From an uncultured beta proteobacterium (GTDB taxonomy: Bacteria > Pseudomonadota > Gammaproteobacteria > Burkholderiales > SG8-41), in contig CADECM010000017.1 in the NCBI GenBank assembly GCA_902825845.1, positions 3,077 to 67,076 of the forward strand: a stretch of 64,000 bases of DNA, written 5' to 3'. The position numbers and the translations under genes were made by a program. The notes below the pieces were generated by a model that saw nothing but the letters and a program-made list of their open reading frames with translations, made no database searches and was not told the DNA's origin. Below are positions 30,485 through 64,000 of this stretch, one piece after another. The stretch's first letter is position 1. Each line of letters starts with the position of its first letter.

Positions 30485-30515
30485 TAAAACTTTATCTTAT
30501 TAATCAACTACTTAC
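30485..30515 (+). repeat. AT-rich motif copy S10 (porin-1 upstream, proximal)
   Basis: TAAAACTTTATCTTATTAATCAACTACTTAC with an exact AATCAACTACTTA. Confidence 0.6.
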
Positions 30516-30634
30516 AAAATAATACGAAATACCATAATACGTAATATGTGTTGCGTATATAACACTAGAATGAAAAATATGTTGTTTTTAAACCACTTTT
30601 TCGCATGAAAATGGGTAAATAATATGAATTAATG

Positions 30635-30759
30635 TTGTTATTTGGATTTCGAAATTTCATACTTGATTCGTCCTTTACGCAAAAGTAAGGCGAAGCGCTC
30701 GCGAGGATGGTCGGGTCGGACCACTCGGGGGCAGACATAAAATGACAGAGGAGTATGAA
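30635..30759 (+). promoter_or_regulatory. predicted sigma70 promoter plus conserved ~90-nt 5'UTR of porin 1
   Basis: TTGTTA (30635-40), a 17-nt spacer and CATACT (30658-63). The leader TTCGTCCTTTACgcaaaaGTAAGGCGAAGCGCTCGCGAGGATGGTCGGGTCGGACCACTCGGGGGCAG...GAGGAG is nearly identical in copy 2. Confidence 0.55.
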
Positions 30760-31974
30760 ATGCAGAAAAAGCTAATTGCAGTGGCCGTCGGCAGTGCGCT
30801 GTCCGCATTCGGTGCCGTCCCGGCGCTGGCGCAAAACGCAACCGTCAACATCTACGGAACGTTCTATGGTGAGTATTCCAGGATTAACAATGGTGCCGCA
30901 TCGGCCACAGAGCCCTATCAGAACTACGACCATTTCCAGAATCCCGGTTCGCGGATTGGTCTACGTGGCGAAGAAAAGCTAGGCGGGGGCCTGTCGGTGT
31001 GGTTCCAGTGCGAAAGTTCCATCGACTATCGCGGCAATAACAACAAGCCCGATGACAATGCTGTGGCCAATAATCACTGGTGCTCGCGTGACAGTGCGCT
31101 GGGCCTGAAGGGTCGTTTCGGTAACGTGTTCTATGGCCAATGGGGCACCCCATGGAAGAATGTCAACAGCAGGGGCAACGTCGGCGCGAACGATACCGGT
31201 GTGTTCGGCACTGCGCATCTTATCGCCGGCAGTTCATCCACTTTCGGCATTTCGGCACCAAACGGCCCTGGCGTCAGCACCACCAACCGCGTTTCGCCGG
31301 GTATTTTCCGCCGCCGCCAAAGCAACCTGTTCAGCTACGAAACGCCGAGCTTCGCCGGCTTCAAGGTCATGGGCGCGGTTACCACCCGCAATCACGCATC
31401 ACGGGCAACCAGTGCGCAACTCAAAACCCGTCTGTGGTCAGTCGGTGCACAGTACGCCAATGGCCCGATCTATGTCGGCGCCGCATACGAGAAGCACAAC
31501 GATTTCTGGAATCTCGGCACAGCTGCAGCGCCGATCGGTGGCGACGATAAAGGGTGGACGGTTGCGGCAAGCTACACCCTGCCCATCCGCCTGAAAATTG
31601 GCGGCAGCATCCAGCAAATGAAAGAGGAACAAGCGCTGGGCCGTGAGACCAAGATCACCACCTACCACATCGGTATTGACTGGATGATTTCAGGTCCGCA
31701 TGGCGTGCGTGCGGCTTATACCCGCGCGGGGGATGTCAAAGGGCCTTCCGGTCAGGCGCACAACGCGCGCCCCGCTGCGAATCCGGATAGCAAAGCGGAC
31801 ATGTGGCAGATTCGTTACGTGTATGCGTTGTCCAAGCGCACCGAGTTCACGGCGGGCTACTCACGAACCAACAACCGGGCCAATGCCACGTACGAAACCG
31901 GCGGCTCTGATTCGACGCAGTTTAGGGGATCGGATTCCAGCGCATTTGCTATTGCCATACGGCATAGCTTCTAG
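30760..31974 (+). CDS. Gram-negative trimeric-type porin, paralogue 1
   Basis: MQKKLIAVAVGSALSAFGAVPALA/QNATVNIYGTFYGEY (signal peptide plus the typical betaproteobacterial porin N-terminus), alternating beta-strand pattern and a C-terminal ...AIAIRHSF (terminal Phe). The ATG at 30760 has GAGGAG 7 nt upstream. Confidence 0.9.
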   Translation: MQKKLIAVAVGSALSAFGAVPALAQNATVNIYGTFYGEYSRINNGAASATEPYQNYDHFQNPGSRIGLRGEEKLGGGLSVWFQCESSIDYRGNNNKPDDNAVANNHWCSRDSALGLKGRFGNVFYGQWGTPWKNVNSRGNVGANDTGVFGTAHLIAGSSSTFGISAPNGPGVSTTNRVSPGIFRRRQSNLFSYETPSFAGFKVMGAVTTRNHASRATSAQLKTRLWSVGAQYANGPIYVGAAYEKHNDFWNLGTAAAPIGGDDKGWTVAASYTLPIRLKIGGSIQQMKEEQALGRETKITTYHIGIDWMISGPHGVRAAYTRAGDVKGPSGQAHNARPAANPDSKADMWQIRYVYALSKRTEFTAGYSRTNNRANATYETGGSDSTQFRGSDSSAFAIAIRHSF

Positions 31975-32149
31975 AGCCCGTTATGAACTTCCGTGAAATC
32001 GAAAATCGTCTCCCTCATCCCAACTCTTGTCCCGAAGGGAGAAGGGCTCTTCACCCCTCGCCCTCCGGGAGATGGGCAGGGGTGAGGGAAAACGAATCGC
32101 CATAAACGGTTGATGTTGAATAATATTTCTGAAGTTCATTACAGGCTCT
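31973..32149. mobile_element. MITE-like 177-bp insertion with 19-bp terminal inverted repeats
   Basis: AGAGCCCGTTATGAACTTC (31973-91) versus the reverse complement of GAAGTTCATTACAGGCTCT (32131-49), 17/19 matches. It is absent from the equivalent position after porins 2 and 3, and its interior holds REP-like GC hairpins (TCACCCCTCGCCCTCCGGGAGATGGGCAGGGGTGA). Confidence 0.65.
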
Positions 32150-32540
32150 CGTAACAGCGCCATCACAGCGTGTTTGAACGGGCGCTCCGGTGCCCGCTCT
32201 TCGCGCGAATTTCCGGGCGGCTGGAAATCGGTGCCCCGGCGGAAGCCTGGGTTTGAACGAAATTGCCAAGGCCAATCTCGATCGCGTCCCGCGAAAAGAG
32301 CATTGCGGCTATGCCAGGAGTGCAAACCACCGCTCTGTGTTTGGTGCAAACGTGACCGCGCAGGCAGGGTCAAGCGCCGGCTGGCAGTGGCCGCGCAGTG
32401 CGGGCGTCAGGTGCAGCTTCACGAATTACTTACGAGGACTTGTGCTTAAGCATAGTGCGCAAATCACTGGAGTCGTTTCTCTGTCGATACGTAGTAACGC
32501 CCCCGTTTTGCGTCAGGCCGCTGATCGCACGTTATTTTTA

Positions 32541-32571
32541 TAAGATATTGAATAACATGAAGTTTTTATAG
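32541..32571 (-). repeat. AT-rich motif copy S11 (porin-2 upstream, distal)
   Basis: TAAGATATTGAATAACATGAAGTTTTTATAG. Confidence 0.45.
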
Positions 32572-32626
32572 AAATTCCCTCAACGCTGAGAGCGATATTC
32601 GCGTCGAATGGCCACTACGTTATCGA

Positions 32627-32657
32627 CTAAAATTTTTACCTATAAATCAATTACTTA
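32627..32657 (+). repeat. AT-rich motif copy S12 (porin-2 upstream, proximal)
   Basis: CTAAAATTTTTACCTATAAATCAATTACTTA with an exact AATCAATTACTTA. Confidence 0.6.
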
Positions 32658-32777
32658 AAAATTTATACGATAAACCACAATACGTAATATATGTTGCGTA
32701 TATAATACAAACTACTAAAATATGTTGTGTTTTTACAACTTAACCTCATAAAAATTGGCTAAAAATATGAATTAAAG

Positions 32778-32900
32778 TTGTTATTAGGCGGTGGCGCTTT
32801 CATACTCAATTCGTCCTTTACGTAAGTAAGGCGAAGCGCTCGCGAGGATGGTCGGGTCGGACCACTCGGGGGCAGACATAAAATGACAGAGGAGTATGAA
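32778..32900 (+). promoter_or_regulatory. predicted sigma70 promoter plus conserved 5'UTR of porin 2
   Basis: TTGTTA (32778-83), a 17-nt spacer and CATACT (32801-06). The leader is almost identical to copy 1. Confidence 0.55.
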
Positions 32901-34112
32901 ATGCAGAAAAAGCTAATTGCAGTGGCCGTTGGTAGTGCGCTGTCCGCATTCGGTGCCACCCCGGCGCTGGCGCAAAATGCAACCGTCAACATTTACGGGA
33001 CGTTCTATGGTGAGTATTCCCGCATTAACAATGGTGCCAAATCGGCCACCGAGCCCTATCAGAACTATGACCATTTCCAGGCACCCGGCTCGTCCATCGG
33101 CTTCCGCGGCGAAGAAAAGCTGGGCGGCGGCCTGTCGGCGTGGTTCCAGTGCGAAAGTTCGACGGATTACCGCGGCGCCAACAACTCGTCGACCAACAGT
33201 CAGACCGGCAGCTACTGGTGCTCGCGCAATAGCGCGCTGGGCCTGAAGGGCGGTTTTGGTAACGTCTACTACGGCAACTGGCAGACGCCGTTTACCCGTA
33301 TTAACTCTGCGGCTAACACCGGTTCGAACGACACTGGCGTGTTCGGTAACGCCCATCTGATGACAGGCACGTCATCCACCTTCAGCGTAGGTGCCCCCAC
33401 CACCGGCAACGTCGCCACGGCCCAACGCGTGTCGCCCGGCGTATTCCGCCGCCGCCAGAGCAACTCATTCAACTATGAGACGCCGAGCTTTGGCGGTTTC
33501 AAGGTGATGGCCGCAGTCACCACCCGCAACTACGCATCGTCGGCAACCAGTGCGCAACAAAAGGCCCGCCTGTGGTCCATCGGCGCGCAGTATGCCAATG
33601 GTCCGATCTTCGTCGGTGCGGCGTATGAGAAGCACGACAACTTCTGGAACATCGGCACCGCTGCGGCGCCGATCGATGGCGATGACAAAGGGTGGACGGT
33701 AGCAGCAACCTACACCCTGCCCATCCGCCTGAAAATCGGTGGCAGCCTCCAGCAAATGAAAGAGACTCAAGCGCTGGGCCGCGAGACCAAGATCACCACC
33801 TATCACATCGGCATAGACTGGATGATTGCAGGTCCGCACGGGGTGCGTGCGGCGTATACCCGTGCGGGGGATGTCAAAGGGCCTTCCGGTCAGGCGCACA
33901 ACGCGCGCCCTGCCGCCAATCCGAATACCAAAGCGGACATGTGGCAGATTCGCTATGTTTACGCGCTGTCCAAGCGTACTGAAGTCACGGCGGGCTACTC
34001 GCGCACCAACAACCGCGCCAATGCGACGTACGAAACCGGCGGCTCCAACTCGACGCAGTTTGCAGGGGCGGATTCCAGCGCATTCGCGGTGGCGTTCCGT
34101 CACAGATTCTAA
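32901..34112 (+). CDS. Gram-negative trimeric-type porin, paralogue 2
   Basis: Same signal peptide and N-terminus as paralogue 1, ending AVAFRHRF. Differences cluster in predicted loops (e.g. ANNSSTNSQTGSYW versus NNNKPDDNAVANNHW). Confidence 0.9.
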   Translation: MQKKLIAVAVGSALSAFGATPALAQNATVNIYGTFYGEYSRINNGAKSATEPYQNYDHFQAPGSSIGFRGEEKLGGGLSAWFQCESSTDYRGANNSSTNSQTGSYWCSRNSALGLKGGFGNVYYGNWQTPFTRINSAANTGSNDTGVFGNAHLMTGTSSTFSVGAPTTGNVATAQRVSPGVFRRRQSNSFNYETPSFGGFKVMAAVTTRNYASSATSAQQKARLWSIGAQYANGPIFVGAAYEKHDNFWNIGTAAAPIDGDDKGWTVAATYTLPIRLKIGGSLQQMKETQALGRETKITTYHIGIDWMIAGPHGVRAAYTRAGDVKGPSGQAHNARPAANPNTKADMWQIRYVYALSKRTEVTAGYSRTNNRANATYETGGSNSTQFAGADSSAFAVAFRHRF

Positions 34113-34137
34113 TAAAACAGTAATCCCGCAGCATATT

Positions 34138-34167
34138 CAAACGGGCGCTTCGGCGCCCGTTTTTTTG
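34138..34167 (+). terminator. rho-independent terminator of porin 2
   Basis: AAACGGGCGCttcgGCGCCCGTTTTTTT. Confidence 0.85.
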
Positions 34168-34610
34168 TGCGCGAATTTCCGGCACCCGGAAATCGGCAAC
34201 CGGCCGACAGCCAGGTTGTGATCGAATTCGCCCAGGTCAATCACAACCGCATCCGACGCAAACGTGTGTGCGCGACGCAAGCCTGGCATCTCGCGCTGTC
34301 AATCCTCACGACGTAGTTTCGTCCAGGCGTTGTGCCGCGCGGGTCGCATGTGATCCACCATAGCCTATGCCGCCTTGACCATCCATGTCGTATCCTCGCC
34401 TGGCTCACGACTGCGCTTGCAGGACCGGCGGCGCGTGTATGAGGCCGCTGTTTTCCGCCAATACCGCGCCCGCCATACGAGTCGCTGCGAGCTTGGATGC
34501 CAACGCACGGGCTTGTCCGTATGTCTTTTCCGCCACCTCGGAAGCATCTGGCGCGCTGAAATGTAGTCCTTGGTTCACCTGATGACTGGGCCAGAGCGCA
34601 CAATTCATTA

Positions 34611-34640
34611 TAACCTATTGATTTTAAATATATTTTAAGA
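34611..34640 (-). repeat. AT-rich motif copy S13 (porin-3 upstream, distal)
   Basis: TAACCTATTGATTTTAAATATATTTTAAGA. Its reverse complement has an exact AATCAATAGGTTA. Confidence 0.6.
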
Positions 34641-34672
34641 AAACCAGGTCGTGATGCCTGTATTCGCACTAC

Positions 34673-34706
34673 TATTTTTTAATTCTTTTTATATCAATAA
34701 CTTACG
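34673..34706 (+). repeat. AT-rich motif copy S14 (porin-3 upstream, proximal)
   Basis: TATTTTTTAATTCTTTTTATATCAATAACTTACG with an exact TATCAATAACTTA. Confidence 0.6.
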
Positions 34707-34818
34707 ATAATAATAAGTCGAAATACGTACATAGTGTTGCGTATCTCCAACGAAATGGCCTTTTTGTTGCTTTTTGGCAACACGTATCTTTCTCTACGAT
34801 GTTTCTCGCACCTAAACA

Positions 34819-34944
34819 TTGAGCTTGGTTTTTCGCGCTTGCATACTGCATTCGTCCTTTACCAATGAGTAAGGCGAACCGCTCGCGAGGAGAAGTCAGG
34901 CTGGACTACTTGGGGGCAAAGTTGAACACACAAAGGAGAATTAC
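34819..34944 (+). promoter_or_regulatory. predicted sigma70 promoter plus conserved 5'UTR of porin 3
   Basis: TTGAGC (34819-24), a 17-nt spacer and CATACT (34842-47). The leader keeps TTCGTCCTTTAC..GTAAGGCGAA.CGCTCGCGAGGA and a hairpin with a compensatory change (AGTC..GACT versus GGTC..GACC). Confidence 0.5.
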
Positions 34945-36150
34945 ATGCAGAAGAAGCTAATTGCAGTGGCCGTCGGCGGTGCGCTCGCCGCGATCGGCGC
35001 CGCTCCGGCGCTGGCGCAGAACGCGACCGTGAACGTGTACGGAACATTCTACGGCGAGTACTCTCGCCTTAATAATGGCGCCCAGACGGGTACTGGCAGT
35101 CAGTATCAGACCTACGACCACTTCCAGAACCCCGGTTCGGAAATCGGTTTCCGCGGCGAAGAAAAACTGGGTGGCGGATTGTCGGCGTGGTTCCAGTGCG
35201 CAAGCTCGCTCGACTATCGCGGTGGCGGTAACACCTCGTCCACCAACAATCAGGCTGGCAGCTACTGGTGCTCGCGTAACAGCGCGCTGGGTCTGAAGGG
35301 CGGCTTCGGTAATGTCTTCTACGGCAACTGGCAGACCCCGTGGACCCGTATTAATTCCGCGGGCAATGTCGGCTCCAACGACACCGGTGTGTTTGGTAAC
35401 GCCCACCTGATTGCCGGCACGTCGTCGACCTTCGGCATCGCGGCACCGGGACAGAACATCAATACGCTGTCTCCCGCCGTATATCGCCGCCGTCAGAATA
35501 ACCTGTTCACCTACGAGACGCCCACCTTCGGCGGCTTCAAGGCGATGGGTGCGGTCACCACGCGCAACTACGCTTCCGCGGCGACCAGCGCGCAACTCAA
35601 GGCCCGCCTGTGGTCCATCGGCGCGCAGTTTGCCAATGGCCCGATCTTCGTCGGCGCAGCTTATGAGAAGCACGACAACTTCTACAACCGCGGCACCGCC
35701 GCCCTGCCGAATGCCGGCGACGACAAATCGTGGACCGTGGCAGCCGCCTATACTCTGCCTATCCGGCTGAAACTCGGCGGCAGTGTGCAGCAGATCAAAT
35801 CGGACGCCGTGCTGAATGCGCAGACCAAGGTAACGACGTTCCACTTTGGTATTGACTGGATGATTGCGGGTCCGCATGGCGTGCGTGCAGGCTATTCGCG
35901 TGCCGGCGATGTCAAGGGTCCGGTGGGTACTGCGATGAACGCCCGTCCGGCCGCCAACGCCAACACCAAGGCGGACATGTGGCAGATTCGCTATGTTTAC
36001 GCGCTGTCCAAGCGTACCGAAGTCACGGCGGGTTACTCGCGCACCAACAACCGCGCCAACGCGACGTACGAAACCGGTGGATCCAACTCGACGCAGTTCC
36101 CGGGCACGGATTCCAGCGCCATCGCTGTTGCTCTAAGGCATTCGTTCTAA
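34945..36150 (+). CDS. Gram-negative trimeric-type porin, paralogue 3
   Basis: MQKKLIAVAVGGALAAIGAAPALA/QNATVNVYGTFYGEY..., ending AVALRHSF. Confidence 0.9.
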   Translation: MQKKLIAVAVGGALAAIGAAPALAQNATVNVYGTFYGEYSRLNNGAQTGTGSQYQTYDHFQNPGSEIGFRGEEKLGGGLSAWFQCASSLDYRGGGNTSSTNNQAGSYWCSRNSALGLKGGFGNVFYGNWQTPWTRINSAGNVGSNDTGVFGNAHLIAGTSSTFGIAAPGQNINTLSPAVYRRRQNNLFTYETPTFGGFKAMGAVTTRNYASAATSAQLKARLWSIGAQFANGPIFVGAAYEKHDNFYNRGTAALPNAGDDKSWTVAAAYTLPIRLKLGGSVQQIKSDAVLNAQTKVTTFHFGIDWMIAGPHGVRAGYSRAGDVKGPVGTAMNARPAANANTKADMWQIRYVYALSKRTEVTAGYSRTNNRANATYETGGSNSTQFPGTDSSAIAVALRHSF

Positions 36151-43480: not shown

Positions 43481-43511
43481 GTAAGTATATGTTTTTATTT
43501 AGTTTTTATAG
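43481..43511 (-). repeat. AT-rich motif copy S15
   Basis: GTAAGTATATGTTTTTATTTAGTTTTTATAG. Confidence 0.55.
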
Positions 43512-47011: not shown

Positions 47012-47545
47012 TCACTCGGCCAGCGCGTCCACTGCCGCGGCAAGATCGGCAAACACACGGGTCCCCGGCGGCAGGCCGCCATCACGCTGTGTCTTCTTGC
47101 CGTTGCCGGTCAACACCAGCACGGGCTGCGCGCCCACGGCGGCGGCCGCCTGTAAATCGCGCAGACCGTCGCCCACCACCGGCACTGCCGCCATCGGAGT
47201 ATTCAGGCGGTGCGCGATGTCTTCCAGCATGCCGGGTTTGGGCTTGCGGCAGTGGCAATTGTCGGCCGCCGCGTGCGGACAAAAATAGACGGCATCAATA
47301 CGCCCGCCCGCCTGTGCCAGCGCCTTGTGCATCTTGTCGTGGATGGCGTTGAGCGTGGTCATGTCGAAAAAACCGCGGCCAATGCCGGATTGATTGGTGG
47401 CCACAATGACATGAAAGCCCGCCTGATTGAGCCGCGCGATCGCGTTCAGACTGCCGGTGATCGGCCGCCATTCAGCGGGACTCTTGATAAAGGCGTCGCT
47501 GTCATGGTTGATCACGCCATCGCGGTCGAGCACGATCAGTTTCAT
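47012..47545 (-). CDS. gmhB: D-glycero-beta-D-manno-heptose-1,7-bisphosphate 7-phosphatase
   Basis: [18 protein letters not shown], the Zn-site [19 protein letters not shown] and VGDGLRD. Confidence 0.9.
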
Positions 47546-50500
47546 GTGGCGAGTTTCGAGATGTTGACCACCTGATGGGTGAGACTGCCCACTTCATGCA
47601 GCAGTGCAAAACGATTTTCGCGAAGGGCCTGGTCTTCGACGTTGACCATCACTTTGTCGAAGAACTGCGTGACCGGCTGATGCAGTTGCGCGGTACGCAG
47701 CAGGGCCTCGCTGAACTGGCCCTGCGGCAACAGCGCATCGACTTCGGCACGCAGTGCGCGGGCTACGTTAAGTAATTGTTTTTCTTCGATTTCCATGAGG
47801 CGTGCCGTATCGGCCCTGACCACTGTGGCCGCGGTACCCGCCGCGCCGGATTTACTCAGGATATTGCGGATGCGCTTGTCAGCTTCGGCCAGACCTGCCG
47901 ACTCCGGCAGCGCCAGAAATTTGCGCGCGGCGTCGAGACGGCTGACGTACTCAAGTGGCCTGGGTGAAAGATCAAGCACCGACTCCACTTCCAGCGCGGT
48001 GTAGCCCAGCTCGCGCAAATAGCTGCGCGCGCGCTCAGTGACAAACGCTCCGGCTTCAACGGCGTTGGGCACCGCAATACCCTTGCGGTCGTGGCTGTCG
48101 AGCACCGTGCCTTTGGGGAAGGTCCCGTGGGCGAGCTCGAGCAGTTCGCCAAAATGCAGCGGCAATTGGCGTTCCGCCAGTATGCGTATCACCCCCAGCG
48201 CGTGCCGCCGCAATGCAAACGGATCCTTGTCGCCGGTGGGTATGGCGCCGGTGCCGAATATGCCGATGATCGTGTCGAGTTTGTCGGCCAGCGCCACGCA
48301 GCAGGCTTCCTGGCTCTGCGGCAGGCGGTCGCCGGCGAAGCGCGGCAGATAGTGTTCCGCGATGGCATCGGCCACCACTTCCGGCTCGCCATCGTGCCGC
48401 GCGTAGTAGCGGCCCATGATGCCCTGCAGTTCGGGGAACTCGCCGACCATGCCGGTTTGCAAATCGGCTTTGGCGAGCCACGCCGCGCGCTGCGTGTGTT
48501 CAACCCGCAGCGGCTCGGCGCCGATCCGCCGCGCGATCCTGCCGGCAAGCAACTGGATGCGCTCGACGCGCTCCAACTGGCTGCCGAGCTTGTTGTGATA
48601 GACGACTTTGCTCAGGGCCGGCACGCGCGTCTCCAGCCGCGCCTTGCGGTCCTGATCGTAAAAAAACCGCGCATCGGCCAGCCGCGGCCGCACCACGCGC
48701 TGATTGCCTTCGATGATGTTCCTGGGATCGGCCACCTGCATATTGCTGACCACCAGAAACTTTTCCGTGAGCTTGCCGCCGCTGTCAAACAGCGGGAAAT
48801 ACTTCTGGTTGGTGCGCATGGTGAGGATCAGGCACTCCTGCGGCACCGACAGGAATTCCTTTTCGAATCCGGCGGCATAGACCACCGGCCATTCCACCAG
48901 GGCGGTGACTTCGTCGAGCAGGGCCTCGTATTCACCAAGCGTGCAGCCCAGCGCAGAGGCCTTTTCCTTTAGCTGCGCTTCAATTACCGCGCGGCGAGTT
49001 CCAAAGTTGGCGATGACCTTGCCGTCGTCCTTCAGACGCGTCTCGTATTCGCCCGCGTCTTTCAATTCGATATCGCGCGCGCCGAGGAAGCGATGGCCGT
49101 GCGTCCCGCGTCCCGCGGCAAGTCCCAATGCCTGTACGTCGACCACGTCTGCGCCATGCAACGCGACCAGGCCATGCGCGGGGCGCACGAACTTGACCGT
49201 CTCGACGCTGCCGGGCAATTGGTAGCTCATGACTTTGGGTATCGGCAGTCGCGCGATGGCTTTTTCCAGCGCGGCAGACAACGCCGCCTGCAAGGACAGC
49301 CCTGCGGCAAGCTGCGGCAGGAACAACATCACCAGTTTGCCGTCGCTGGCTTTTTTGATCGAGGCTAGCGCCGATTCATCGCGGCCCAGCGCGGCGAGTT
49401 TTTTCAACAACGCCGCGGTCGGTTTGCCCGCGGCGTCGAGGCCGACTTTTTCCGGCAGCAGCCGTTCGTCAATTTGGCGGTCCGGCGCTCTGCCCGGCAC
49501 GCTCGAAAAACGCGCTGCCAGGCGCCGTGGTGTGGCAAACACCTCCAGCCCGCAATCCGCTGCCAGCAAGCCGCTCGCGGTCAGTTCGTCGCGTAAGCCG
49601 TGCGCAAAGGCTTCACCCAGACGCTGCAGCGCCTTGGGCGGCAGTTCTTCGGTAAACAATTCGACCAACAGCGGGGCAACGGTGTCGACGCCTGCCGGCG
49701 CTGCGGCGGCCTCTGGTGTGGGCGCTGGCTTGGCTGCGAGCGCGCGCGGCAGACCTTTGCGTGCCGCCAGTACTTCGTCAATTTCTTCTTTTGAAACAAA
49801 GGCTTGTATTGCCTCCTCTGAGGCGCGCTCAAAGCCGCGCTGCTTGCGAGACTGGTAGTACGACTGCGCCGCCGCGCGCGCCAGCGCCCGCACGCGGCCG
49901 ATGTAGGCAGCGCGCTCGGTTACCGAAATCGCGCCGCGTGCATCCAGCAGATTGAAGCTGTGCGAGCATTTCATCACCATCTCGTAACCGGGCAATGCGA
50001 GGCCGGCTTCAAACAATCGCTTTGCTTCGCCTTCAAACTGGCCGAACTGCAGCAGCAGCATGTCGACGTTGGCCTGCTCGAAGTTGTACGTCGATTGCTC
50101 AACCTCATTCTGGTGATACACATCGCGGTAGGTGACGCCCGGCGCCCACACCAGATCGAAAATGCTTTCCTTTTGCTGCAGGTACATGGCCAGGCGCTCG
50201 ATGCCGTAGGTGATCTCGCCCATCACCGGCCTGCACGGGATGCCGCCGACCTCCTGAAAATAAGTGAACTGCGTGACCTCCATGCCGTTCAACCACACTT
50301 CCCAGCCCAGGCCCCACGCGCCGAGCGTGGGCGATTCCCAGTCGTCCTCGACAAAGCGGATGTCGTGTTCGAGCGGATCGATGCCGATTTCCTTGAGCGA
50401 GCCCAGATACAAATCCAGAATGTTCGCGGGGGAGGGCTTCAGTACCACCTGATACTGGTAATAGTGCTGCAGACGATTCGGATTTTCACCATAGCGGCCG

Positions 50501-50691
50501 TCTTTGGGGCGGCGCGACGGCTGCACGTACGCGGCATTCCACGGCTCCGGGCCGATCGCGCGCAGGAAGGTGGCGGTGTGGAAGGTGCCCGCGCCGACCT
50601 CCATGTCGTATGGCTGCAGCAACGCACAGTGATTGCGGTCCCAATAGTGATTGAGCGCGAGGATCAGTTGCTGAAAGGTTTGCATTGACAA
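47542..50691 (-). CDS. glyQS: glycine--tRNA ligase, alpha and beta subunits fused in one 1049-aa ORF
   Basis: Residues 1-~295 are GlyQ ([39 protein letters not shown]...). A ~50-aa Ala/Pro/Glu linker follows, then the GlyS N-terminus [15 protein letters not shown] through to the end. There is no stop or frameshift between them. ATGA overlap with gmhB. Confidence 0.9.
47768..47794 (-). repeat. AT-rich motif copy S16 embedded in glyS coding sequence
   Basis: TTAAGTAATTGTTTTTCTTCGATTTCC; the coding strand reads gaa atc gaa gaa aaa caa tta ctt aac = EIEEKQLLN. Confidence 0.45.
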
Positions 50692-50758: not shown

Positions 50759-51745
50759 TCAGGGCTGACGCGCCTTGGTGCTGGCGAGCTCGCGCTCCAG
50801 TTGCTCGATGCGCCGCTGCATGACCGACAAGCGCGTATTCAGCGCACCGACGTTGAAGAAGGTTTCGTTGTTCGCGGGCGCGTTGAGCACGGCGGCATAA
50901 CCCAGCCACGAGGGCTCGTATACCTTGACGTTTTTGAAGCCGAGCTTCGACAGTACCACGGCCGTTTCCGAGGCGCGCGTGCCGCTCTGGCAATACACGA
51001 TGGTTTCTTTTTCGGGGTCGAGCGCGGCGTAAAGTTTTTTCAGTTCCTGTCCGGATTTCAATGACATGCCGCTGTTGTCCGCCACCTGTTTGCGCGCGAG
51101 CTTCAACGCGGTGTCGGGGTCCGCCCAGTTCTGCTCATAAGGAATGTTGATTGCACCGGGAATGTGCCCGCCGCGAATGGCGCGGATGTCGTTGCCGCTG
51201 AATTCCGCCACGGTGCGCGCGTCGATGATCTGCACGCCCCGTTTTTGTGCGGCGAGCATTTGCGAGGTATCGATGCCGAGCGACGGATCGGGTGTCAGTT
51301 TCAGCGTCACCGGCGGCAGTCTGGGCGCGTTGGTACTGATGGTCAGCCCGGCACCACGCCAGCCGTCGATGCCGTCGTGATACACATGGCCCTGCGTGCC
51401 GCCGAAATAGCGCAGGCTGTAGAGGCCGAGGTAGGCGCTGGCGTCGCCGCGTGTCGAATACACGATGATTTCTTTCGACGGATCAATGCCCGCCGCGCCC
51501 AGTGCTTTTTCAATCTGCGCAGTCGGCAGGAAGTCTTCAGTGTTCGGATTGCGCAGTGCCCGCGCGATGGCTCCCACACTGACGGCGCCGGGAATGTGGC
51601 CTTTCTGGTAGGCCTCGGCGGCACGCACGTCCCAGATGATCACGCCGCGTTTTTGCGCTTCCAGCACGAACGCGGTATCGACGATGTTGCCCATCGCCCA
51701 TACGGGTAGGCATAAAAAATTTAATAAAAACAGATAGTTACGCAT
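50759..51745 (-). CDS. secreted tandem-rhodanese sulfurtransferase
   Basis: Start MRNYLFLLNFLCLPVWA at 51745 (the track ORF extends to 51847). Two rhodanese domains, active-site loop VYCQSGTRAS and a C-terminal coiled tail. Confidence 0.8.
   Translation of the reverse strand: MRNYLFLLNFLCLPVWAMGNIVDTAFVLEAQKRGVIIWDVRAAEAYQKGHIPGAVSVGAIARALRNPNTEDFLPTAQIEKALGAAGIDPSKEIIVYSTRGDASAYLGLYSLRYFGGTQGHVYHDGIDGWRGAGLTISTNAPRLPPVTLKLTPDPSLGIDTSQMLAAQKRGVQIIDARTVAEFSGNDIRAIRGGHIPGAINIPYEQNWADPDTALKLARKQVADNSGMSLKSGQELKKLYAALDPEKETIVYCQSGTRASETAVVLSKLGFKNVKVYEPSWLGYAAVLNAPANNETFFNVGALNTRLSVMQRRIEQLERELASTKARQP
51713..51741 (+). repeat. AT-rich motif copy S17 overlapping the rhodanese start/signal peptide
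   Basis: TAAAAAATTTAATAAAAACAGATAGTTAC; the coding strand reads cgt aac tat ctg ttt tta tta aat ttt tta. Confidence 0.55.
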
Positions 51746-51767: not shown

Positions 51768-53249
51768 TCAGCGGCGGCGTCGCGAGAGCGCCAACGCCAG
51801 CATTGCCGCAACAATCGCCAGCACCGCGTGGTTGCCCCAGCGCACATACGGCGTGATGCCCTGATAGCCGGGCACGTTGTGCTCTACCGAGGCGGTGGTG
51901 AATTGCGGCGCGGCCTTCACCACGCGTCCACGCTGATCGATCACGGCCGTCATGCCGGTGTTGGTGGCGCGCAGCATGTAGCGGCCGGTCTCGAGCGCGC
52001 GTGCCTGCGAAATTTGCAGATGCTGTTCCGGCGCGATGGAGCGGCCGAACCACGCGACATTGCTGATATTCACCAGTAATGTCGCCTGTGGCAACTGGCG
52101 GATGATTTCCTCGCCGAACACGTCTTCGTAGCAGATATTCACCGCCACGCGCTGCCCGGCAATGTCGAGCGGCTGCTGGCCGGGGGCGCCGCGCGAAAAA
52201 TCCTGCATGGGTATGGCGAGAATGTTGACGATCCACGCCAGCACGGGACGCAGCGGGATGAACTCGCCAAACGGCACCAGATGTGATTTGCGGTAGCGTT
52301 GCGACGGCGAACTGCCAAGGGAAATCGCCGCGTTGTAATAACTGCCGTCGGGTTCACGCTCGACCACGCCAAACAGCAAATCGCCCGTGCGGCTGCGGGC
52401 GTGCCCGGCCAGCAAATCCAGATAATCGGGCGGCACCTGATGCAAAAACATCGGTAATGCGGTTTCCGGCAGCACGATCAGTTGTGCGTTGCTTGCGCGC
52501 GCGAGATCGGCATACGACTTGAGCGTGGCGATCATTTGATCTTCGCGCCATTTCATGTCTTGCGACACATTGCCCTGCAGCAGGCTCACCGTCGTCGATG
52601 TGCCGCTGGGGGCGGTCCATTCCATCTGCTTTAACGCAAATCCGCCGGCGGCATAGCAAAGCAAGCTTGCGGATGCTGCCGTAAGTGCGGCCCTGGTTCT
52701 TTGCCGCCGCGCGGCAGCAGCGATGCAGCCGGCGATCAACGTCACGGCCAGACTCACACCGTAAATGCCAAACAGCGGGGCAAATCCGGCCAGGGGACTT
52801 GAGGGAATTTGCGAGTAACCGACGCTGTTCCACGGGAACCCGGTAAAAATCCAGTTGCGCACCCACTCGGCCAGCACCCAACAGGCAGGTGCAATCACCA
52901 TGGATTTCACGACGGGCGCGCGCCCGCTACGTGCCACCGCATAACCCGCCGCCGCCGGAAACAGGGCGAGAAACGCACAGAACAGCAGCGTGGCGGCGGC
53001 CGCCAGCGGCAGCGGCATGGCGCCGAAGGTGTGCAGGCTGACGTAAATCCACGATACGCCGGCGAGAAAAAAGCCCACCCCGAACGCCCATCCGGTCTTG
53101 AAGGCGTGCCCAGGCGTGGCGGCATGCGCCCATTGCCAGAACAACAATGCCAGCGTGAAAAACGGCAGGGGTGCGGCATGGAACGGCGCGAACCCTGCAA
53201 CCGTCAACACGCCTGCAAGAAACGCAATCAGGAAAAACCTGTCGCGCAT
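51768..53249 (-). CDS. lnt: apolipoprotein N-acyltransferase
   Basis: 493 aa with an N-terminal polytopic domain and a CN-hydrolase domain (LIVLPETA, ICYEDVFG, NISNVAWFG). Confidence 0.95.
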   Translation of the reverse strand: MRDRFFLIAFLAGVLTVAGFAPFHAAPLPFFTLALLFWQWAHAATPGHAFKTGWAFGVGFFLAGVSWIYVSLHTFGAMPLPLAAAATLLFCAFLALFPAAAGYAVARSGRAPVVKSMVIAPACWVLAEWVRNWIFTGFPWNSVGYSQIPSSPLAGFAPLFGIYGVSLAVTLIAGCIAAAARRQRTRAALTAASASLLCYAAGGFALKQMEWTAPSGTSTTVSLLQGNVSQDMKWREDQMIATLKSYADLARASNAQLIVLPETALPMFLHQVPPDYLDLLAGHARSRTGDLLFGVVEREPDGSYYNAAISLGSSPSQRYRKSHLVPFGEFIPLRPVLAWIVNILAIPMQDFSRGAPGQQPLDIAGQRVAVNICYEDVFGEEIIRQLPQATLLVNISNVAWFGRSIAPEQHLQISQARALETGRYMLRATNTGMTAVIDQRGRVVKAAPQFTTASVEHNVPGYQGITPYVRWGNHAVLAIVAAMLALALSRRRR

Positions 53250-53294
53250 GTTTCAAGCCGCCTTGTGTCTATTCGGAAGGAGAAAACGTTATTG

Positions 53295-53427
53295 GCCACA
53301 GATAAACACGGATAAACACAGATGCAAACCGCGGCTGCGGATGAACGCAAAATATCCCGGGGCCAATCTGCGTCGACGGTTTCGACGTTCAGGATCTGAT
53401 CTGTGTTTATCCGTGTGCATCTGTGGC
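53295..53427. repeat. 133-bp element bounded by 29-bp inverted repeats
   Basis: GCCACAGATAAACACGGATAAACACAGAT (53295-53323) versus the reverse complement of ATCTGTGTTTATCCGTGTGCATCTGTGGC (53399-53427), 27/29 matches. The arms contain GATAAACAC direct sub-repeats. It lies in the lnt-corC gap. Confidence 0.8.
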
Positions 53428-53467
53428 TGAATATTCTTGGTTCTTGGGTGTAACCCGGCCTGATTGG

Positions 53468-54298
53468 TCAGGCCGTCTTTTTCCTGACCACTTGCAGCAA
53501 ATGCATGCGCCGGCTGTCGGCGCGCAGCACCTTGAACGACAGGTTGTCGAAGCTGATCTGCTCGCCGCGCTTGGGAATGCGGCCAAAGCGCTTGAGCACC
53601 AGGCCGCCGATGGTGTCGAATTCGGCGTCGTCGTAGTTTGTTCCAAAAAATTCATTAAAATCAGATACTTCCGTGAGGGCCTTGACGCGGTACTGGCCGC
53701 CGCGTTCTTCGACGATTTTTTCGTCGATGTCATCGGTGTCGTGCTCATCCTCGATGTCGCCGACGATTTGTTCGAGCACGTCCTCGATCGTCACCAGTCC
53801 GGCCACGCCGCCGTATTCGTCGACCACGATGGCGATGTGATTGCGGTTGACGCGAAATTCCTTGAGCAACACATTCAGCGGTTTGGATTCGGGAATGAAC
53901 ACCGCGGGCCGCAGCATCTCGCGCACATTGAATTCTTCCTCGCCCGCGTAGTAACGCAGCAGATCCTTGGCGAGCAGGATGCCGATCACGTTGTCCTTGT
54001 TGTCGCCGATCACCGGAAAGCGCGAGTGCGCGGTCTGGATCACCCACGGGATAAACTGTGTCGGTGATTCGCCGATGTCGATCACGTCCATTTGCGAGCG
54101 CGGGATCATGATGTCGCGCGCCTGCATTTCCGATACCTGCAGCACGCCTTCGATCATCGCCAGCGCGTCCGCATCGAGCAGGCTGCGCTCGTACGCCGAG
54201 TGCAGCAGCTGCAGCAACTGCTCCCGGTCCTCCGGCTCGCGCATGAGAAATGCGGAGATGCGGTCAAGTACCGAGGGCTTATCGTTGGCGGTGGACAT
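53468..54298 (-). CDS. corC: CBS-pair/CorC_HlyC domain magnesium-cobalt efflux protein
   Basis: 276 aa with a CBS pair (ARDIMIPRSQM...) and a C-terminal transporter-associated domain (FDTIGGLVLKRFGRIPKRGE). Confidence 0.9.
   Translation of the reverse strand: MSTANDKPSVLDRISAFLMREPEDREQLLQLLHSAYERSLLDADALAMIEGVLQVSEMQARDIMIPRSQMDVIDIGESPTQFIPWVIQTAHSRFPVIGDNKDNVIGILLAKDLLRYYAGEEEFNVREMLRPAVFIPESKPLNVLLKEFRVNRNHIAIVVDEYGGVAGLVTIEDVLEQIVGDIEDEHDTDDIDEKIVEERGGQYRVKALTEVSDFNEFFGTNYDDAEFDTIGGLVLKRFGRIPKRGEQISFDNLSFKVLRADSRRMHLLQVVRKKTA
53645..53672 (+). repeat. AT-rich motif copy S18 embedded in-frame in corC
   Basis: AAAAAATTCATTAAAATCAGATACTTCC; the coding strand reads gaa gta tct gat ttt aat gaa ttt ttt gga = EVSDFNEFFG. 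Confidence 0.6.
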
Positions 54299-54333
54299 AG
54301 GGTTTGACGCGCAGGGCGGCAGCCGAAAGCAGC

Positions 54334-54807
54334 TTACCGGCCGGGCCGGTTGCCGGCCCCCCGTCCTGCAACATAGGGATCAGCATACCCCATTTTCGCC
54401 AGAATCTGCGTTTCGCGCTGCTCCATGACTTTCGCGTCCGCGCGCAATTCGTGGTCGTAACCCTGCAAATGCAAAGTGCCATGCACCGTCAGGTGCGCGT
54501 AGTGCGCCGCGAGCGTTTTGTGCCGCGCGCGTGCTTCGCGCGCAACGACCGGTGCGCACAAGGCAAGATCGCCTTCGAACGGCGCCTGCCCGCTGAATAC
54601 AAACGTCAGCACGTTGGTGGCGTAATCCTTTTGGCGATAAGTGCGGTTCAGCACGCGCCCCTCACCGAGGCCAACGAGACGTATCGTGACCGCTGCATCG
54701 TGTTCCAGCGCCGCGCGCACCCATTTCCTGAATTGTGCCCGCGATGGCAAGCCGCGGGCCGACACGGCATACTGTACCGCGAGGCTCAGCCGGACCGCGG
54801 CCGTCAT
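54334..54807 (-). CDS. ybeY: rRNA maturation endoribonuclease YbeY
   Basis: HGTLHLQGYDH zinc motif. Confidence 0.95.
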   Translation of the reverse strand: MTAAVRLSLAVQYAVSARGLPSRAQFRKWVRAALEHDAAVTIRLVGLGEGRVLNRTYRQKDYATNVLTFVFSGQAPFEGDLALCAPVVAREARARHKTLAAHYAHLTVHGTLHLQGYDHELRADAKVMEQRETQILAKMGYADPYVAGRGAGNRPGR

Positions 54808-55796
54808 TGCCGCGGTTCATGTTCTGGTGTCGTGGCTTCGGCGCTTTTGCGCGGCTTGCGGCCTTCATAGGCGTTGACAATGCGCTGCACCAGCGGATGG
54901 CGCACCACGTCTTCAGCGCCAAAGTAGGTGAATGCGATGCCGCGCACGGTTTTCAGAATCTCGTGCGCGTCGATGAGCCCGCTTTTTTGCCCGCGTGCGA
55001 GATCGATCTGCGTCACGTCGCCGGTCACCACCACGCGGCTGCCGAAGCCGATGCGCGTCAAAAACATTTTCATCTGTTCGGGCGTGGTGTTCTGCGCTTC
55101 ATCGAGGATCACAAACGCATGGTTCAGCGTGCGCCCGCGCATGAAGGCCAGCGGCGCGACCTCGATCGCGCCGCGCTCGAACATTTTGGCAACGCGGTCG
55201 TAGCCCATCAGATCGTACAGCGCGTCGTACAGCGGGCGCAGGTACGGATCGACCTTTTGCGCCATATCGCCCGGCAAAAAGCCCAGGCGTTCGCCGGCTT
55301 CCACTGCCGGCCGCACCAGCACCAGACGCTTCACTGCATCGCGCTCGAAAGCGTCCACGGCGCAGGCCACCGCGAGATACGTCTTGCCGGTGCCGGCGGG
55401 TCCGATGCCGAAGGTGATGTCGTGGGTCTGGATTTTCTTCAGGTACTCGACCTGATGCGGCGTGCGGCCCTGCAGATCGGCGCGGCGCGTGATCAGCACC
55501 GGTTCGCCGGTTGCGCTGTGCGTGCCGGGCATGTGCGCCGCCTGCACCAGACCCAGCTGCAGGTCCTCGGGATTGAGCGCGTGCGTCGCCTTGCCGTAAA
55601 ACGATTCCAGCACACGCGCGGCGACCCTGGTTTTGTCGGCCGCGCCGGTCACCGTGAAATGTTCGCCGCGGCGCGTGATCGCGACTTCGCAGGCGCTTTC
55701 GATCTGGCGCAGATTCTGGTCGAGTGCGCCGCACAGATTGGCCAGCCGCTGATTGTTGACTGGCGTAAAGCTTATATCCACATTATTGTTTTTCAA
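54804..55796 (-). CDS. phoH: PhoH-family ATPase (YbeZ)
   Basis: Walker [13 protein letters not shown] and [11 protein letters not shown]. It overlaps ybeY by 4 nt. Confidence 0.9.
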
Positions 55797-55802
55797 GTAT
55801 TT

Positions 55803-57152
55803 TCAGCCAACAGCCTGGTTGCTCCCGGTGAGTACACCGCGCAATGAATAGTGCAGCGCTTCGGTAATTGTAACCTCGGTGAAGCGATTGATCAGCGATT
55901 CGTGCCCGTCAAAATTGACCACGCGGTTGTTGTCGGTGCGGCCGGCGAGTTGCTTGTTGCCGTTGCCGGCCCGCCGCGCATGGCCCGTCACCAGCACGCG
56001 TTGACGCGTGCCGACCATCGCGCGGCTGTACCCCTGCGATTGCCCGTCGATGGTGGCCTGCAGGCGCTGCAAGCGCGCGGATTTCTCTGCCTGAGGCAGG
56101 TCATCGGGCAGATTGGCCGCCGGCGTGCCCGGGCGGCGGCTGTAGATAAAACTGAACGCGCCATCGAATTTGATGTCCTCGATCAGGCGCATTGTCGCCT
56201 CGAAATCGTCGGCGGTTTCGCCCGGAAAGCCGACAATGAAGTCGGACGAGATCGAAATTTGCGGGCGCACCGCGCGCAAACGGCGCACGATGGATTTGAA
56301 CTCCAGCGCGGTGTAGCCCCGTTTCATCGCCGCCAGCACGCGATCCGACCCCGCCTGCACCGGCAGATGCACTTGATCGACCAGCGATGGAATTTTGGCG
56401 TAGGCGTCGATCAGCCGCTGTGTGAATTCCTTCGGATGCGAGGTGGTGTAGCGGATGCGTTCGATCCCCGGAATTTCCGCGACATACTCCAGCAGCAGCG
56501 CGAAATCCGCGTCGTCCCCGTCTTCCGTCCGCGCACGGTAGGCGTTGACGTTTTGTCCCAGTAGCGTGATCTCCTGGACGCCCTGCAACGCGAGTTCGGC
56601 CACTTCACCGAGCACGCTGTCGAACGAACGCGACACCTCCTCGCCGCGCGTGTACGGCACCACGCAGAACGCGCAGTATTTGCTGCAACCCTCCATGATC
56701 GACACGAACGCGGCCGCGCCTTCGACACGCGCGGGCGGCAGGTGGTCGAATTTCTCAACTTCCGGAAACGCGATGTCCACCTGCGGCTTGCCGCTCGCGC
56801 GCCGCGCCTCGATCAACTGCGGCAGGCGGTGCAGGGTTTGCGGACCGAAAACCATGTCCACGTACGGCGCGCGCGCGATGATCGCCGCGCCTTCCTGGCT
56901 CGCGACACAGCCGCCGACGCCGATCAGTACATGAGGATTGTCGCGTTTGAATTGGCGCACGCGCCCCAGATCATGAAACACCTTTTCCTGGGCTTTTTCG
57001 CGCACCGAGCAGGTGTTAAACAGAATGACCGCGGCGTCAGCAGGGTTCCCGGTCGGCTCCAGCCCGTGCGCTGCGCGCAGCACGTCCGCCATCTTGTCCG
57101 AGTCATACTCGTTCATCTGGCAGCCGAAGGTCTTGATATAGACTTTCGCCAA
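55803..57152 (-). CDS. miaB: tRNA-i6A37 methylthiotransferase MiaB
   Basis: [16 protein letters not shown], the radical-SAM motif [11 protein letters not shown] and a TRAM C-terminus. The track ORF runs to 57263, but it would overlap the upstream gene; TTG at 57152 ([11 protein letters not shown]) is the probable start. Confidence 0.9.
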
Positions 57153-60390: not shown

Positions 60391-60422
60391 GTAATTTATT
60401 GATTTTAAACAATTGTTTTATG
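60391..60422 (-). repeat. AT-rich motif copy S19
   Basis: GTAATTTATTGATTTTAAACAATTGTTTTATG. Its reverse complement has an exact AATCAATAAATTA. It lies ~60 nt upstream of the tRNA. Confidence 0.65.
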
Positions 60423-62591: not shown

Positions 62592-63233
62592 GTGCTCGAT
62601 AGCGCACAACGAAGGCTGTTGCCGGCGCTAACGGCTTCGGCGTTGCTGCATGTCTGGCTGGTGCAGACTGGTGACAGCGGCGCCGCGCGGCGCGTAACCC
62701 CCGCGGTCAGCGCGACGATGTCCGCCACGCTGCGTGTGGCGCATTCCGATTTTGGAGAGGCGCATGCGCAAGCGCGGCCCCACGAAGGTCCGCACGAAGC
62801 GCCACAGCCGCGGGAAATAACCGGCGGCGTTGCGGTCGCCGCGCATAGCGCCGCGGTCCGCGCGCGGTTACCGGGGCTTGCGCCTGCGCCGGTGGCAAAA
62901 AGTGCGACCGCCGAGAGCAGTGCCATGCCGGCCGCAGTCAGCGACCCCACCTACTATCCCGCGCTCAGCCTGGATGTGTACCCTCGCGCCCTCACGGCGC
63001 TGGATTTGGGCAGCCGGGCGCAAGCGGGCACGGTGCGCGCAACCGTGCTCATCGACGAAGCCGGCACGGTAAACGATGTGCGGGCGATCGAGGCGGGCGC
63101 CACCGAGGTCGAGAATGCAGCGCGCGAATTGCTGCTGCGCGCGCGCTTTACACCGGCCGCCAAGGATGGCCGCGCGGTCAAGGCACAGTTGCTGGTCAGT
63201 CTGGAGTATCGCGCAGGCGGCGGGCAGAACTAA
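62592..63233 (+). CDS. TonB C-terminal-domain protein
   Basis: GTG start and an N-terminal TM segment. The C-terminus YPRALTALDLGSRAQAGTVRATVLIDEAGTVNDVRAIE...ARFTPAAKDGRAVKAQLLVSLEY has a TonB_C-like fold pattern. Confidence 0.6.
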   Translation: MLDSAQRRLLPALTASALLHVWLVQTGDSGAARRVTPAVSATMSATLRVAHSDFGEAHAQARPHEGPHEAPQPREITGGVAVAAHSAAVRARLPGLAPAPVAKSATAESSAMPAAVSDPTYYPALSLDVYPRALTALDLGSRAQAGTVRATVLIDEAGTVNDVRAIEAGATEVENAARELLLRARFTPAAKDGRAVKAQLLVSLEYRAGGGQN

Positions 63234-63235
63234 TT

Positions 63236-63264
63236 TAAGTATCTGTTTTTAAACAACTTTTTAT
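63236..63264 (-). repeat. AT-rich motif copy S20
   Basis: TAAGTATCTGTTTTTAAACAACTTTTTAT, between the convergent TonB-like and mltA ends. The mltA stop codon lies inside it. Confidence 0.6.
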
Positions 63265-64000
63265 GGGTGGGCCGTTGGCGGCGCCATGCTGCCGGGCAAC
63301 AGTACCCACATCTGCAGCGCCTGCTGCATGCGCCCGGCTTCGCGCGCCGCCGATTCGCCCGCGCCCCAGAAAAAATCCGCGCGCACGGTACCGCGGATGG
63401 CGCCGCCGATATCCTGTGCCAACATCAGCCGTTGCAGCGGCTTGTCGGTATTCGGCCAGGTGGTGGCAATGTGTACCGGTACCCCCAGCGGCACGTAACG
63501 TGGATCGACGGCGATACTGCGCCGTGGCGTCAGCGGCACACCCAGCGCGCCGGGCGGCGCGTTGTCCGGCCCCGTCAATTCGCGAAAAAACACATAGCGC
63601 GGATTCTGGTTGAGCAGTTCGGTCAGCTTGTCCGGATTGGCCTGCGCCCACGCCTTGATTCCCGGCATCGACGCGCGATCCCGGCTCAGGTCGCCGCGTT
63701 CGATCAACACGCGGCCGATCGAACGGTACGGCAGGCCGTTGTGTCCGGCAAAGCCGATGCGCATGACGCCGCCTTCCTCGAGCGCGATGCGGCCGGAGCC
63801 CTGCACTTGCAGAAAGAACAGATCCAGTTGATTGTCCACCCACGCGATTTCCCTGCCGCGCAGCGGCGTGTCGCTGCCTTCGATGGTCGCGCGGGCATGG
63901 TACGGCACCACGCGCCTGCCATCGACGCGCACGCGCAAGGCGGACGAATTCACCTCCGGCACAACGTCGCCCAGATCCAGCGTGAGCAAATCGTCGGGCA
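63261..64000 (-). CDS. mltA: membrane-bound lytic murein transglycosylase A (5' end off window)
   Basis: LFFLQVQGSGRI, GHNGLPYRSIGR, SIAVDPRYVPLGVPV and DIGGAIRG...DFFWG (MltA plus 3D domain). The reading frame is open to the window end. Confidence 0.9.
   Translation of the reverse strand, partial: PDDLLTLDLGDVVPEVNSSALRVRVDGRRVVPYHARATIEGSDTPLRGREIAWVDNQLDLFFLQVQGSGRIALEEGGVMRIGFAGHNGLPYRSIGRVLIERGDLSRDRASMPGIKAWAQANPDKLTELLNQNPRYVFFRELTGPDNAPPGALGVPLTPRRSIAVDPRYVPLGVPVHIATTWPNTDKPLQRLMLAQDIGGAIRGTVRADFFWGAGESAAREAGRMQQALQMWVLLPGSMAPPTAHP

Follow-up and report, generated by a model that had tools for sequence, protein, structure and literature searches.

A recurrent 27-bp AT-rich motif within the coding sequence of corC in an uncultured Burkholderiales bacterium: a candidate binding site of the integration host factor

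The corC gene and its run of A/T-ending codons

In the stretch of DNA analysed here (the window; 64,000 nucleotides from an uncultured member of the Burkholderiales), the gene corC occupies positions 53468 to 54298 of the minus strand within the usual gene order miaB-phoH-ybeY-corC-lnt. It is an open reading frame (ORF) of 276 amino acids, which consists of the Pfam domains NMB0537_N, a CBS pair and CorC_HlyC. The downstream gene lnt (51768-53249, minus strand) encodes an apolipoprotein N-acyltransferase. The 3' part of corC contains a 27-bp AT-rich element, which recurs throughout the window and resembles binding sites of the integration host factor (IHF). At this place (53645-53672), the plus strand reads AAAAAATTCATTAAAATCAGATACTTCC; the minus strand, which is the coding strand, reads gaa gta tct gat ttt aat gaa ttt ttt gga and encodes the peptide EVSDFNEFFG.

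An earlier note on this DNA, made from the letters alone, had described the element as a motif copy written in frame into a conserved segment of CorC by means of A/T-ending codons. The reading frame and the peptide could be confirmed in the 276-amino-acid ORF, and the proposed position within the transporter-associated domain also holds: according to Pfam, CorC_HlyC comprises residues 198 to 272 and thus includes residues 210 to 220. Orthologues were collected from genome and metagenome contigs (160 loci) and, for the close clade, by protein look-ups (18 loci). In all 178 loci, the stretch can be aligned to E(I/V/L)xDFNxxFG without a gap; it is colinear with the DFNE.FG segment and therefore not an insertion.

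All ten codons of EVSDFNEFFG end in A or T, and an eleventh, ACA, lengthens the run to E210-T220 (EVSDFNEFFGT; 53639-53671, minus strand). The GC content at third codon positions (GC3) of corC is 0.80, and the codons flanking the run are G/C-ending as described, with the sole exception of one GAA six codons downstream. Eleven consecutive A/T-ending codons are the record among approximately 16,400 codons of the window, the runner-up being a run of seven. The probability that all 11 codons are A/T-ending, given the peptide and the codon usage of the window, is 2.7e-6, and a run of at least 11 was obtained in one of 2000 synonymous resamplings of all window genes. The local dip in GC3, which the earlier note had wished to see compared with normal variance, thus lies far outside the variance of the window.

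A run of this kind could be a conserved cluster of rare codons, which slows translation at the start of CorC_HlyC and thereby aids co-translational folding. Indeed, TCT (2.8% of the serine codons), GTA (7% of the valine codons), GGA (8% of the glycine codons) and ACA are rare, and residues 210 to 220 follow shortly after residue 198, where the domain starts. Conserved rare-codon clusters are likewise stretches of consecutive non-preferred synonyms, which a subclade of a protein family keeps at one position. However, rarity is confined to these four codons and does not extend to the run as a whole. Pausing is a weak explanation, because GAA, TTT, AAT and GAT are used at 58%, 42%, 40% and 39%, respectively, and it would leave unexplained why the nucleotide string matches a motif that is otherwise intergenic, why the motif is present in an untranslated spacer of a sister clade and why such a cluster is absent from all other orthologues. 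A role in translational pausing is thus considered very unlikely.

A recurrent 27-bp motif family

The motif was recovered from the 9-mer TTAAAATCA, which leads to a family of 27-mers with the consensus AAAAAATTATTTAAAATCAATAAGTTA. The corC copy is located at 53645-53671 on the plus strand, antisense to corC, and reads AAAAAA-TTCATTAA-AATCAG-ATAC-TTC. A position weight matrix (PWM) was trained on ten other copies of the window, which start at positions 4016, 12541, 16132, 19421, 20805, 34611, 43482, 51714, 60392 and 63236, and the corC copy was excluded from the training set. On this matrix, the corC copy reaches 38.2 bits and falls within the range of the training copies (36.1 to 49.0 bits), whereas the best of the other untrained sites in the window score 33.3 and 28.4 bits. 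The stretch is thus a copy of the motif, as the earlier note had proposed, and around ten further copies are present in the window. None of 100,000 shuffles of the corC 27-mer reached 38.2 bits (the maximum was 31.5), and none of 2000 synonymously resampled coding sets reached 38.1 bits. Furthermore, coding or ORF space contains five matches of at least 25 bits, compared to 0.07 expected; one of the five, the copy at 51714, probably lies just upstream of a start codon. The codons of corC are chosen non-randomly with regard to the motif: among 3072 synonymous encodings of the peptide, the actual one is the second best for the motif match, which corresponds to a weighted probability of 1.6e-5.

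The window contains approximately 11 strong copies in 64 kb, or about one per 5 kb, and most of them are intergenic, unlike the corC copy, which lies 177 to 203 nt inside the 3' part of its gene. The best copy (19421-19447, plus strand; 49.0 bits) reads AAAAAATTATTTAAAATCAATAAGTTA. Several others are located in short spacers between genes: the copy at 4016-4042 (minus strand; 46.0 bits) fills a 33-nt spacer between two plus-strand genes, the one at 12541-12567 (plus strand; 44.8 bits) lies in a 45-nt spacer between ubiE and a Tim44-like gene, the one at 16132-16158 (plus strand; 38.0 bits) abuts the start of a HIT gene, and the one at 51714-51740 (plus strand; 42.3 bits) extends from the lnt stop to the ATG of a rhodanese gene, which is abutted by its T-tract. 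The copy at 60392-60418 (minus strand; 43.4 bits) is found between two plus-strand genes, the copy at 34611-34637 (minus strand; 40.8 bits) upstream of a porin gene and the copy at 20805-20831 (plus strand; 36.1 bits) in a divergent intergenic region. Convergent genes flank two further copies, at 43482-43508 (minus strand; 41.7 bits) and at 63236-63262 (minus strand; 42.4 bits). The latter is positioned between the stop codons of a TonB-like gene and MltA: it fills the 27-nt gap between the TonB_C-domain gene (62592-63233, plus strand) and MltA (63261-63989, minus strand), and its A-tract end overlaps the TAA stop of MltA.

Weaker copies are found in coding sequences. An intragenic copy of 33.3 bits is located in an aldo/keto reductase gene (25882-25908, plus strand; ENINKNKDL). 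A second codon-encoded copy of 26.2 bits (47769-47795, minus strand) lies in glyQS, approximately 250 nt before the end of glyS, where it is written as GAA GAA AAA CAA TTA CTT (EEKQLL) and makes use of the rare leucine codons TTA and CTT. A weak copy of 21.1 bits (55779-55805, minus strand) spans the miaB stop and the phoH start; it contains CTTGAAA and encodes the N-terminus of PhoH (TTG AAA AAC AAT AAT, with AAY in relatives; MKNNN).

Two further observations were made in these regions. AT-rich spacers with several motif-like sites are also present in a low-GC island at approximately 30000-35000, in which the GC content drops to 0.49-0.53 in places, compared to about 0.63 elsewhere; the spacers separate ORFs of around 400 to 410 amino acids (30742-31974, 32883-34112 and 34945-36150), the last of which matches Porin_4. 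In addition, glyQ and glyS are read as one ORF of 1049 amino acids in the window (47542-50691, minus strand), with the domains tRNA-synt_2e (residues 6-282), tRNA_synt_2f (341-906) and DALR (937-1038), whereas close relatives possess a separate glyQ (314 amino acids) and glyS (704 to 708 amino acids) with an overlap of 4 nt. The single ORF may reflect either a true gene fusion or a frameshift in the assembly.

An over-represented word, which is found both inside and outside coding regions and is also kept by relatives, could be a DNA uptake signal for natural transformation. The DNA uptake sequence (DUS) of Neisseria and the uptake signal sequence (USS) of the Pasteurellaceae are likewise over-represented and are fitted into reading frames by the choice of codons and amino acids. 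These signals have a GC-containing core, occur about once per kb and are frequently embedded in coding regions. The density of the motif described here is roughly five times lower, its copies are mostly intergenic, it is purely AT-rich without a GC-containing core, and it shows an orientation bias relative to genes. An uptake signal is therefore the least credible of the explanations considered and is regarded as highly improbable.

Retention of the corC copy and a counterpart in a sister clade

The close clade comprises lineages of uncultured Burkholderiales with an amino-acid identity of at least 86.5%. Ten of its lineages keep the site: the window with 38.2 bits and nine others with 27 to 36 bits, namely those designated L161 (35.9 bits), L165 (35.6), L177/178 (35.5), L167-170 (34.2), L001 (34.2), L171 (31.2), L175 (29.7), L174 (29.0) and L176 (27.4). 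AAAAA, TCATTAAAATCA, R and TTC are invariant across the motif-keeping lineages, and the only bases that vary are those of N4 and the two that follow the A-tract. All motif-bearing relatives possess an A5 tract and ATCAR, either as ATCAG or as ATCAA. Where Ser212 is replaced by valine or alanine, the codons are GTT, GTT and GCT; these are rare codons, and the third-position T and ATCAR are kept. Glu210 is encoded by GAA in 13 of 13 clade sequences. Across nine codons in 14 clade sequences, the mean frequency of A/T-ending codons is 0.83 at the motif, compared to a gene median of 0.24.

Outside the clade, starting with L082 (85.8% amino-acid identity), orthologues in GC-rich genomes use G/C-ending codons at this place, and the PWM scores of genomes with comparable GC3 range from below 0 to about 12 bits. 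At the corC position, the scores of low-GC orthologues (GC3 below 0.4) do not exceed 20 bits. The motif is therefore neither a family-wide trait nor a by-product of AT-rich coding, which answers the concern of the earlier note that orthologues might show the same AT-rich codons here. The import of a patch from a low-GC corC allele was also considered; it is unlikely, since no sampled orthologue that could have served as its source exceeds 20 bits and the flanking codons resemble those of L081 rather than those of a distant donor.

A counterpart of the site is found in a sister clade with 77 to 78% identity (L106, L111, L003, L012 and L095). In these lineages, the motif has the same orientation as in the window, lies 11 to 14 nt past the corC stop and scores 28 to 39 bits. 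The spacer between corC and lnt has a length of 45 to 55 nt and is essentially one motif copy (position 1759 in L106), which lies 10 to 30 nt upstream of the lnt start. In the clade of the window, there is often no spacer between corC and lnt, and the two genes adjoin or overlap (L001, L162, L165, L172, L175 and L177), and a site at this boundary would therefore have to lie in coding DNA. The distance between the motif and the lnt start is approximately 400 nt in the window and approximately 200 nt in relatives with abutting corC and lnt.

Other copies are also kept at their positions. The copy behind lnt (51714 in the window) has counterparts in L162 (43.9 bits) and L082 (34.6 bits). The glyS copy keeps its position in L167 and L170-L175 with 25.9 to 33.8 bits (position 10454 in L167, 10379 in L171, 10186 in L174 and 10191 in L175), and the copy at the miaB/phoH junction is stronger in relatives than in the window, with 24 to 35 bits (position 3554 in L167, 3475 in L166 and 3503 in L177).

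Architecture of the motif and its possible functions

The members of the family share a layout that consists of an A-tract (A4-6), 8 bp, (A/T)A(T/A)CA(A/G), 4 bp and TTA; judged by its sequence, this is the layout of a canonical IHF site. The two most conserved elements of IHF sites are WATCAA/WATCAR and a TTR four bp away (PMC1874591; bioRxiv 10.1101/382655), and the 5' half of some sites contains an A-tract of 4 to 6 As (PMC1874591). In the window, WATCARNNNNTTR occurs 11 times, compared to 1.5 expected, and the A-tract-extended IHF pattern occurs five times, compared to 0 expected; the best copy at 19421 fits every element of the consensus. The H' site of lambda attP reads AAAAAA-GCATTGCT-TATCAA-TTTG-TTG and has a spacing identical to that of the family. 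Thus, the order and the spacing of the elements are shared with canonical IHF sites such as H' and the sites found by chromatin immunoprecipitation sequencing (ChIP-seq) in E. coli, a likeness that is known here from the letters of the DNA.

The corC copy fits the A6 tract (53645-53650, plus strand), which is the reverse complement of the codons TTT TTT of Phe217-Phe218, the distance of 8 bp to WATCAR, the WATCAR core itself (AATCAG; 53659-53664, plus strand) and the TT of TTR. Its only mismatch to the consensus is the last base: at the TTR position (53669-53671, plus strand), the corC copy has TTC, whereas TTA is present in all ten intergenic copies that were used to build the matrix. TTC is the reverse complement of the GAA codon of Glu210, and the C takes the place of the purine because it is complementary to the first base of this invariant codon; a purine at the final motif base would require a glutamine or a stop codon at position 210.

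With a confidence slightly above even, the stretch is considered to be a selected DNA-level site near the corC-lnt boundary, which is most likely bound and bent by IHF. It is a genuine copy of the recurrent motif, encoded in corC by synonymous choice together with a few tolerated amino-acid changes and kept across the clade. IHF is proposed to bind the putative site and to bend the DNA sharply; similar sites with an architectural or regulatory role would follow one another at intervals of a few kb, and the corC site would belong to this set. The compact corC-lnt junction might force the site into coding DNA, where the peptide DFNE-(F/I/V)-F is able to encode the motif. Candidate effects of the binding are on the transcription of lnt or of the operon, or on the architecture of the nucleoid. 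Selection on the DNA on top of protein coding, as the earlier note had suggested, is supported by the rank of the codon choice, the retention within the clade and the third-position T of the Ser212 variants, and selection on the codons at the corC site is accordingly thought probable for a site that some lineages can do without. In E. coli ChIP-seq regions, less than 10% of the IHF motif occurrences are located upstream of operons (PMC3333857); intragenic IHF sites are therefore a known phenomenon.

Several observations weigh against this interpretation. Half of the strong copies contain AAACAR instead of AATCAR, and a homologue of ihfA or ihfB was not found in the 64 kb covered by the window, a negative that is uninformative for the genome as a whole. 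No sigma-70-like promoter was detected near the site (53100-54400 scanned), and a role in the transcription of lnt is therefore without direct support. The site is eroded in four lineages, partly in L166 (25.3 bits) and further in L162-164 (20.0 bits), L172/173 (11.8 bits) and L081 (7.9 bits; the L081 version of the motif region is GAAGAATTCGTTGAAATCGGCTATTTC). A test of motif retention at these codons, as called for in the earlier note, was thus positive for most lineages of the clade but not for these four, and the corC site must therefore be dispensable. The eroded lineages include the two closest relatives, L081 (95.6% identity) and L162 (93.8% identity), and the window is grouped with both in a neighbour-joining tree calculated without the motif region. 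Moreover, the A/T-ending codons of the window, glutamate codons excluded, persist in relatives at a frequency of 0.74 within the motif and 0.52 elsewhere, which is a modest advantage (Mann-Whitney p = 0.017; random-set p = 0.07). Finally, IHF binding alone predicts neither the uniform orientation of eight strong copies nor the position of four strong copies directly at start codons without a visible Shine-Dalgarno sequence.

Erosion and modest persistence would also be expected of a neutral relic, that is, of an AT-rich patch that arose once at the base of the clade by a mutation cluster or by recombination, slowly decays toward GC and resembles the motif fortuitously. In agreement with such decay, no other 33-nt segment of corC differs as much from L081 as the motif region, which has 11 mismatches versus a median of 3 at an overall nucleotide identity of 90.3%. 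However, a fortuitous patch would hardly match an independent PWM with 38 bits, a score that was never reached by shuffles or resampling, and no sampled orthologue contains a donor-like sequence, even at GC3 below 0.4. Conservation and variation also follow the motif, with the consensus positions conserved and the N4 positions variable, and in the sister clade the adjacent spacer contains the motif as well. A neutral origin is therefore regarded as unlikely, albeit less so than translational pausing.

The orientation of the copies and their proximity to start codons, which IHF binding does not predict, point to the main rival, a role at the level of RNA or translation. The T-rich strand is the sense strand in all eight strong copies with an unambiguous direction of transcription, the corC copy included. 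The copies at 4016, 12541, 16132 and 51714 make up nearly the entire intercistronic spacer, and their T-tracts end 0 to 4 nt from the next start codon, for example in TTTTTTATG at 51709-51717 and in TTTTTTTcATG at 4038-4048. The motif might thus be a strand-specific signal on the transcript, or be recognized by an unknown factor that is coupled to transcription or translation, and the corC copy would be an internal RNA element. Such a signal could be, for example, an AU- or U-rich leader for Shine-Dalgarno-independent initiation, or a target of RNase E, Hfq or ribosomal protein S1; in corC, it might mark a point at which the mRNA is processed between its corC and lnt portions. The position of the sister-clade copies shortly upstream of lnt would fit such a signal. 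However, the corC copy is located approximately 200 to 400 nt from the lnt start, and an ATG inside the corC motif opens an off-frame ORF of 82 amino acids in the window but of only 20 amino acids in most relatives; the ORF is not conserved, and an overlapping gene was therefore rejected. Two copies lie between convergent stop codons and have no downstream start codon, and the weaker conserved copies (glyQS, miaB/phoH junction, aldo/keto reductase gene) point the opposite way to the corC copy. A single orientation rule for all copies was therefore rejected; it is true of the eight unambiguous strong copies and not of the weaker conserved intragenic ones. Furthermore, the geometry of A-tract, WATCAR and TTR would be unexpected for a generic AU-rich leader, and no Rfam family overlaps the motif, the only hits being two sub-threshold matches elsewhere in 53200-54300. 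An RNA-level role of the element is thus regarded as doubtful, although it is the strongest of the rivals.

In more general terms, it is conceivable, if doubtful to the same degree, that the 27-bp element is a lineage-specific, transcription-oriented signal (an RNA element, a module for Shine-Dalgarno-independent initiation or for processing, or a site recognized by an uncharacterised protein) instead of an IHF site. In that case, the element would replace ordinary intercistronic spacers in the clade and would have been copied into at least one conserved coding segment under dual constraint. Transcription signals of known types were also considered at the site and rejected: apart from the missing sigma-70 promoter, two terminator-like hairpins are at chance level, and the patterns of sigma-54, sigma-E, sigma-32 and extended -10 promoters gave no fit on manual reading.

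For the IHF interpretation, which is preferred here, the comparison with known systems reveals both likenesses and differences. In contrast to canonical sites, the corC copy has TTC in place of TTR at its end. Compared to the loose IHF consensus of E. coli, the copies of the family are more alike than required, as in their TTTAAAA spacer, and they are orientation-biased relative to genes. Conserved intragenic sites have been described for sigma-54, FliA and CRP, in which a protein-binding motif is kept in coding sequence across related species (PMC4591121; PMC6397444), and in genomes of balanced base composition many intragenic sites are put down to chance (PMC6397444). The corC copy is likewise conserved in coding DNA; however, chance is negligible here because of the GC-rich background. 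The corC site is a clear but precedented case of a DNA signal layered on coding sequence and no new kind of system. Its value lies in the fact that an AT-rich protein-binding site is sharply visible against the background of a GC-rich genome, so that the imprint of a DNA-level signal on a conserved stretch of protein can be seen in corC with a clarity that is unusual for a natural locus. The locus could be used to test how sites of nucleoid proteins constrain synonymous positions, and how such sites move between spacer and coding DNA as operons become compact.

Repeated IHF-type sites in intergenic DNA, often at the ends of genes, are also a feature of the RIP/BIME-type repetitive extragenic palindromic (REP) elements of E. 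coli. The copies of the family differ from these in that no palindromic REP units flank them. A REP-like inverted repeat is present close to the corC copy, in the corC-lnt spacer at 53297-53415, and a link to the motif was considered and rejected: the palindrome is confined to this spacer, is absent from the other motif copies and is regarded as a separate element. It consists of arms with the sequence CACGGATAAACACAGAT and an additional tandem copy, CACAGATAAACACGGAT, and has no second occurrence in the window; its match in Rfam is a hairpin at chance level. The repeat widens the corC-lnt spacer of the window to 218 nt, whereas the two genes abut in several close relatives such as L001, L082 and L162 and are separated by 45 to 170 nt in others.

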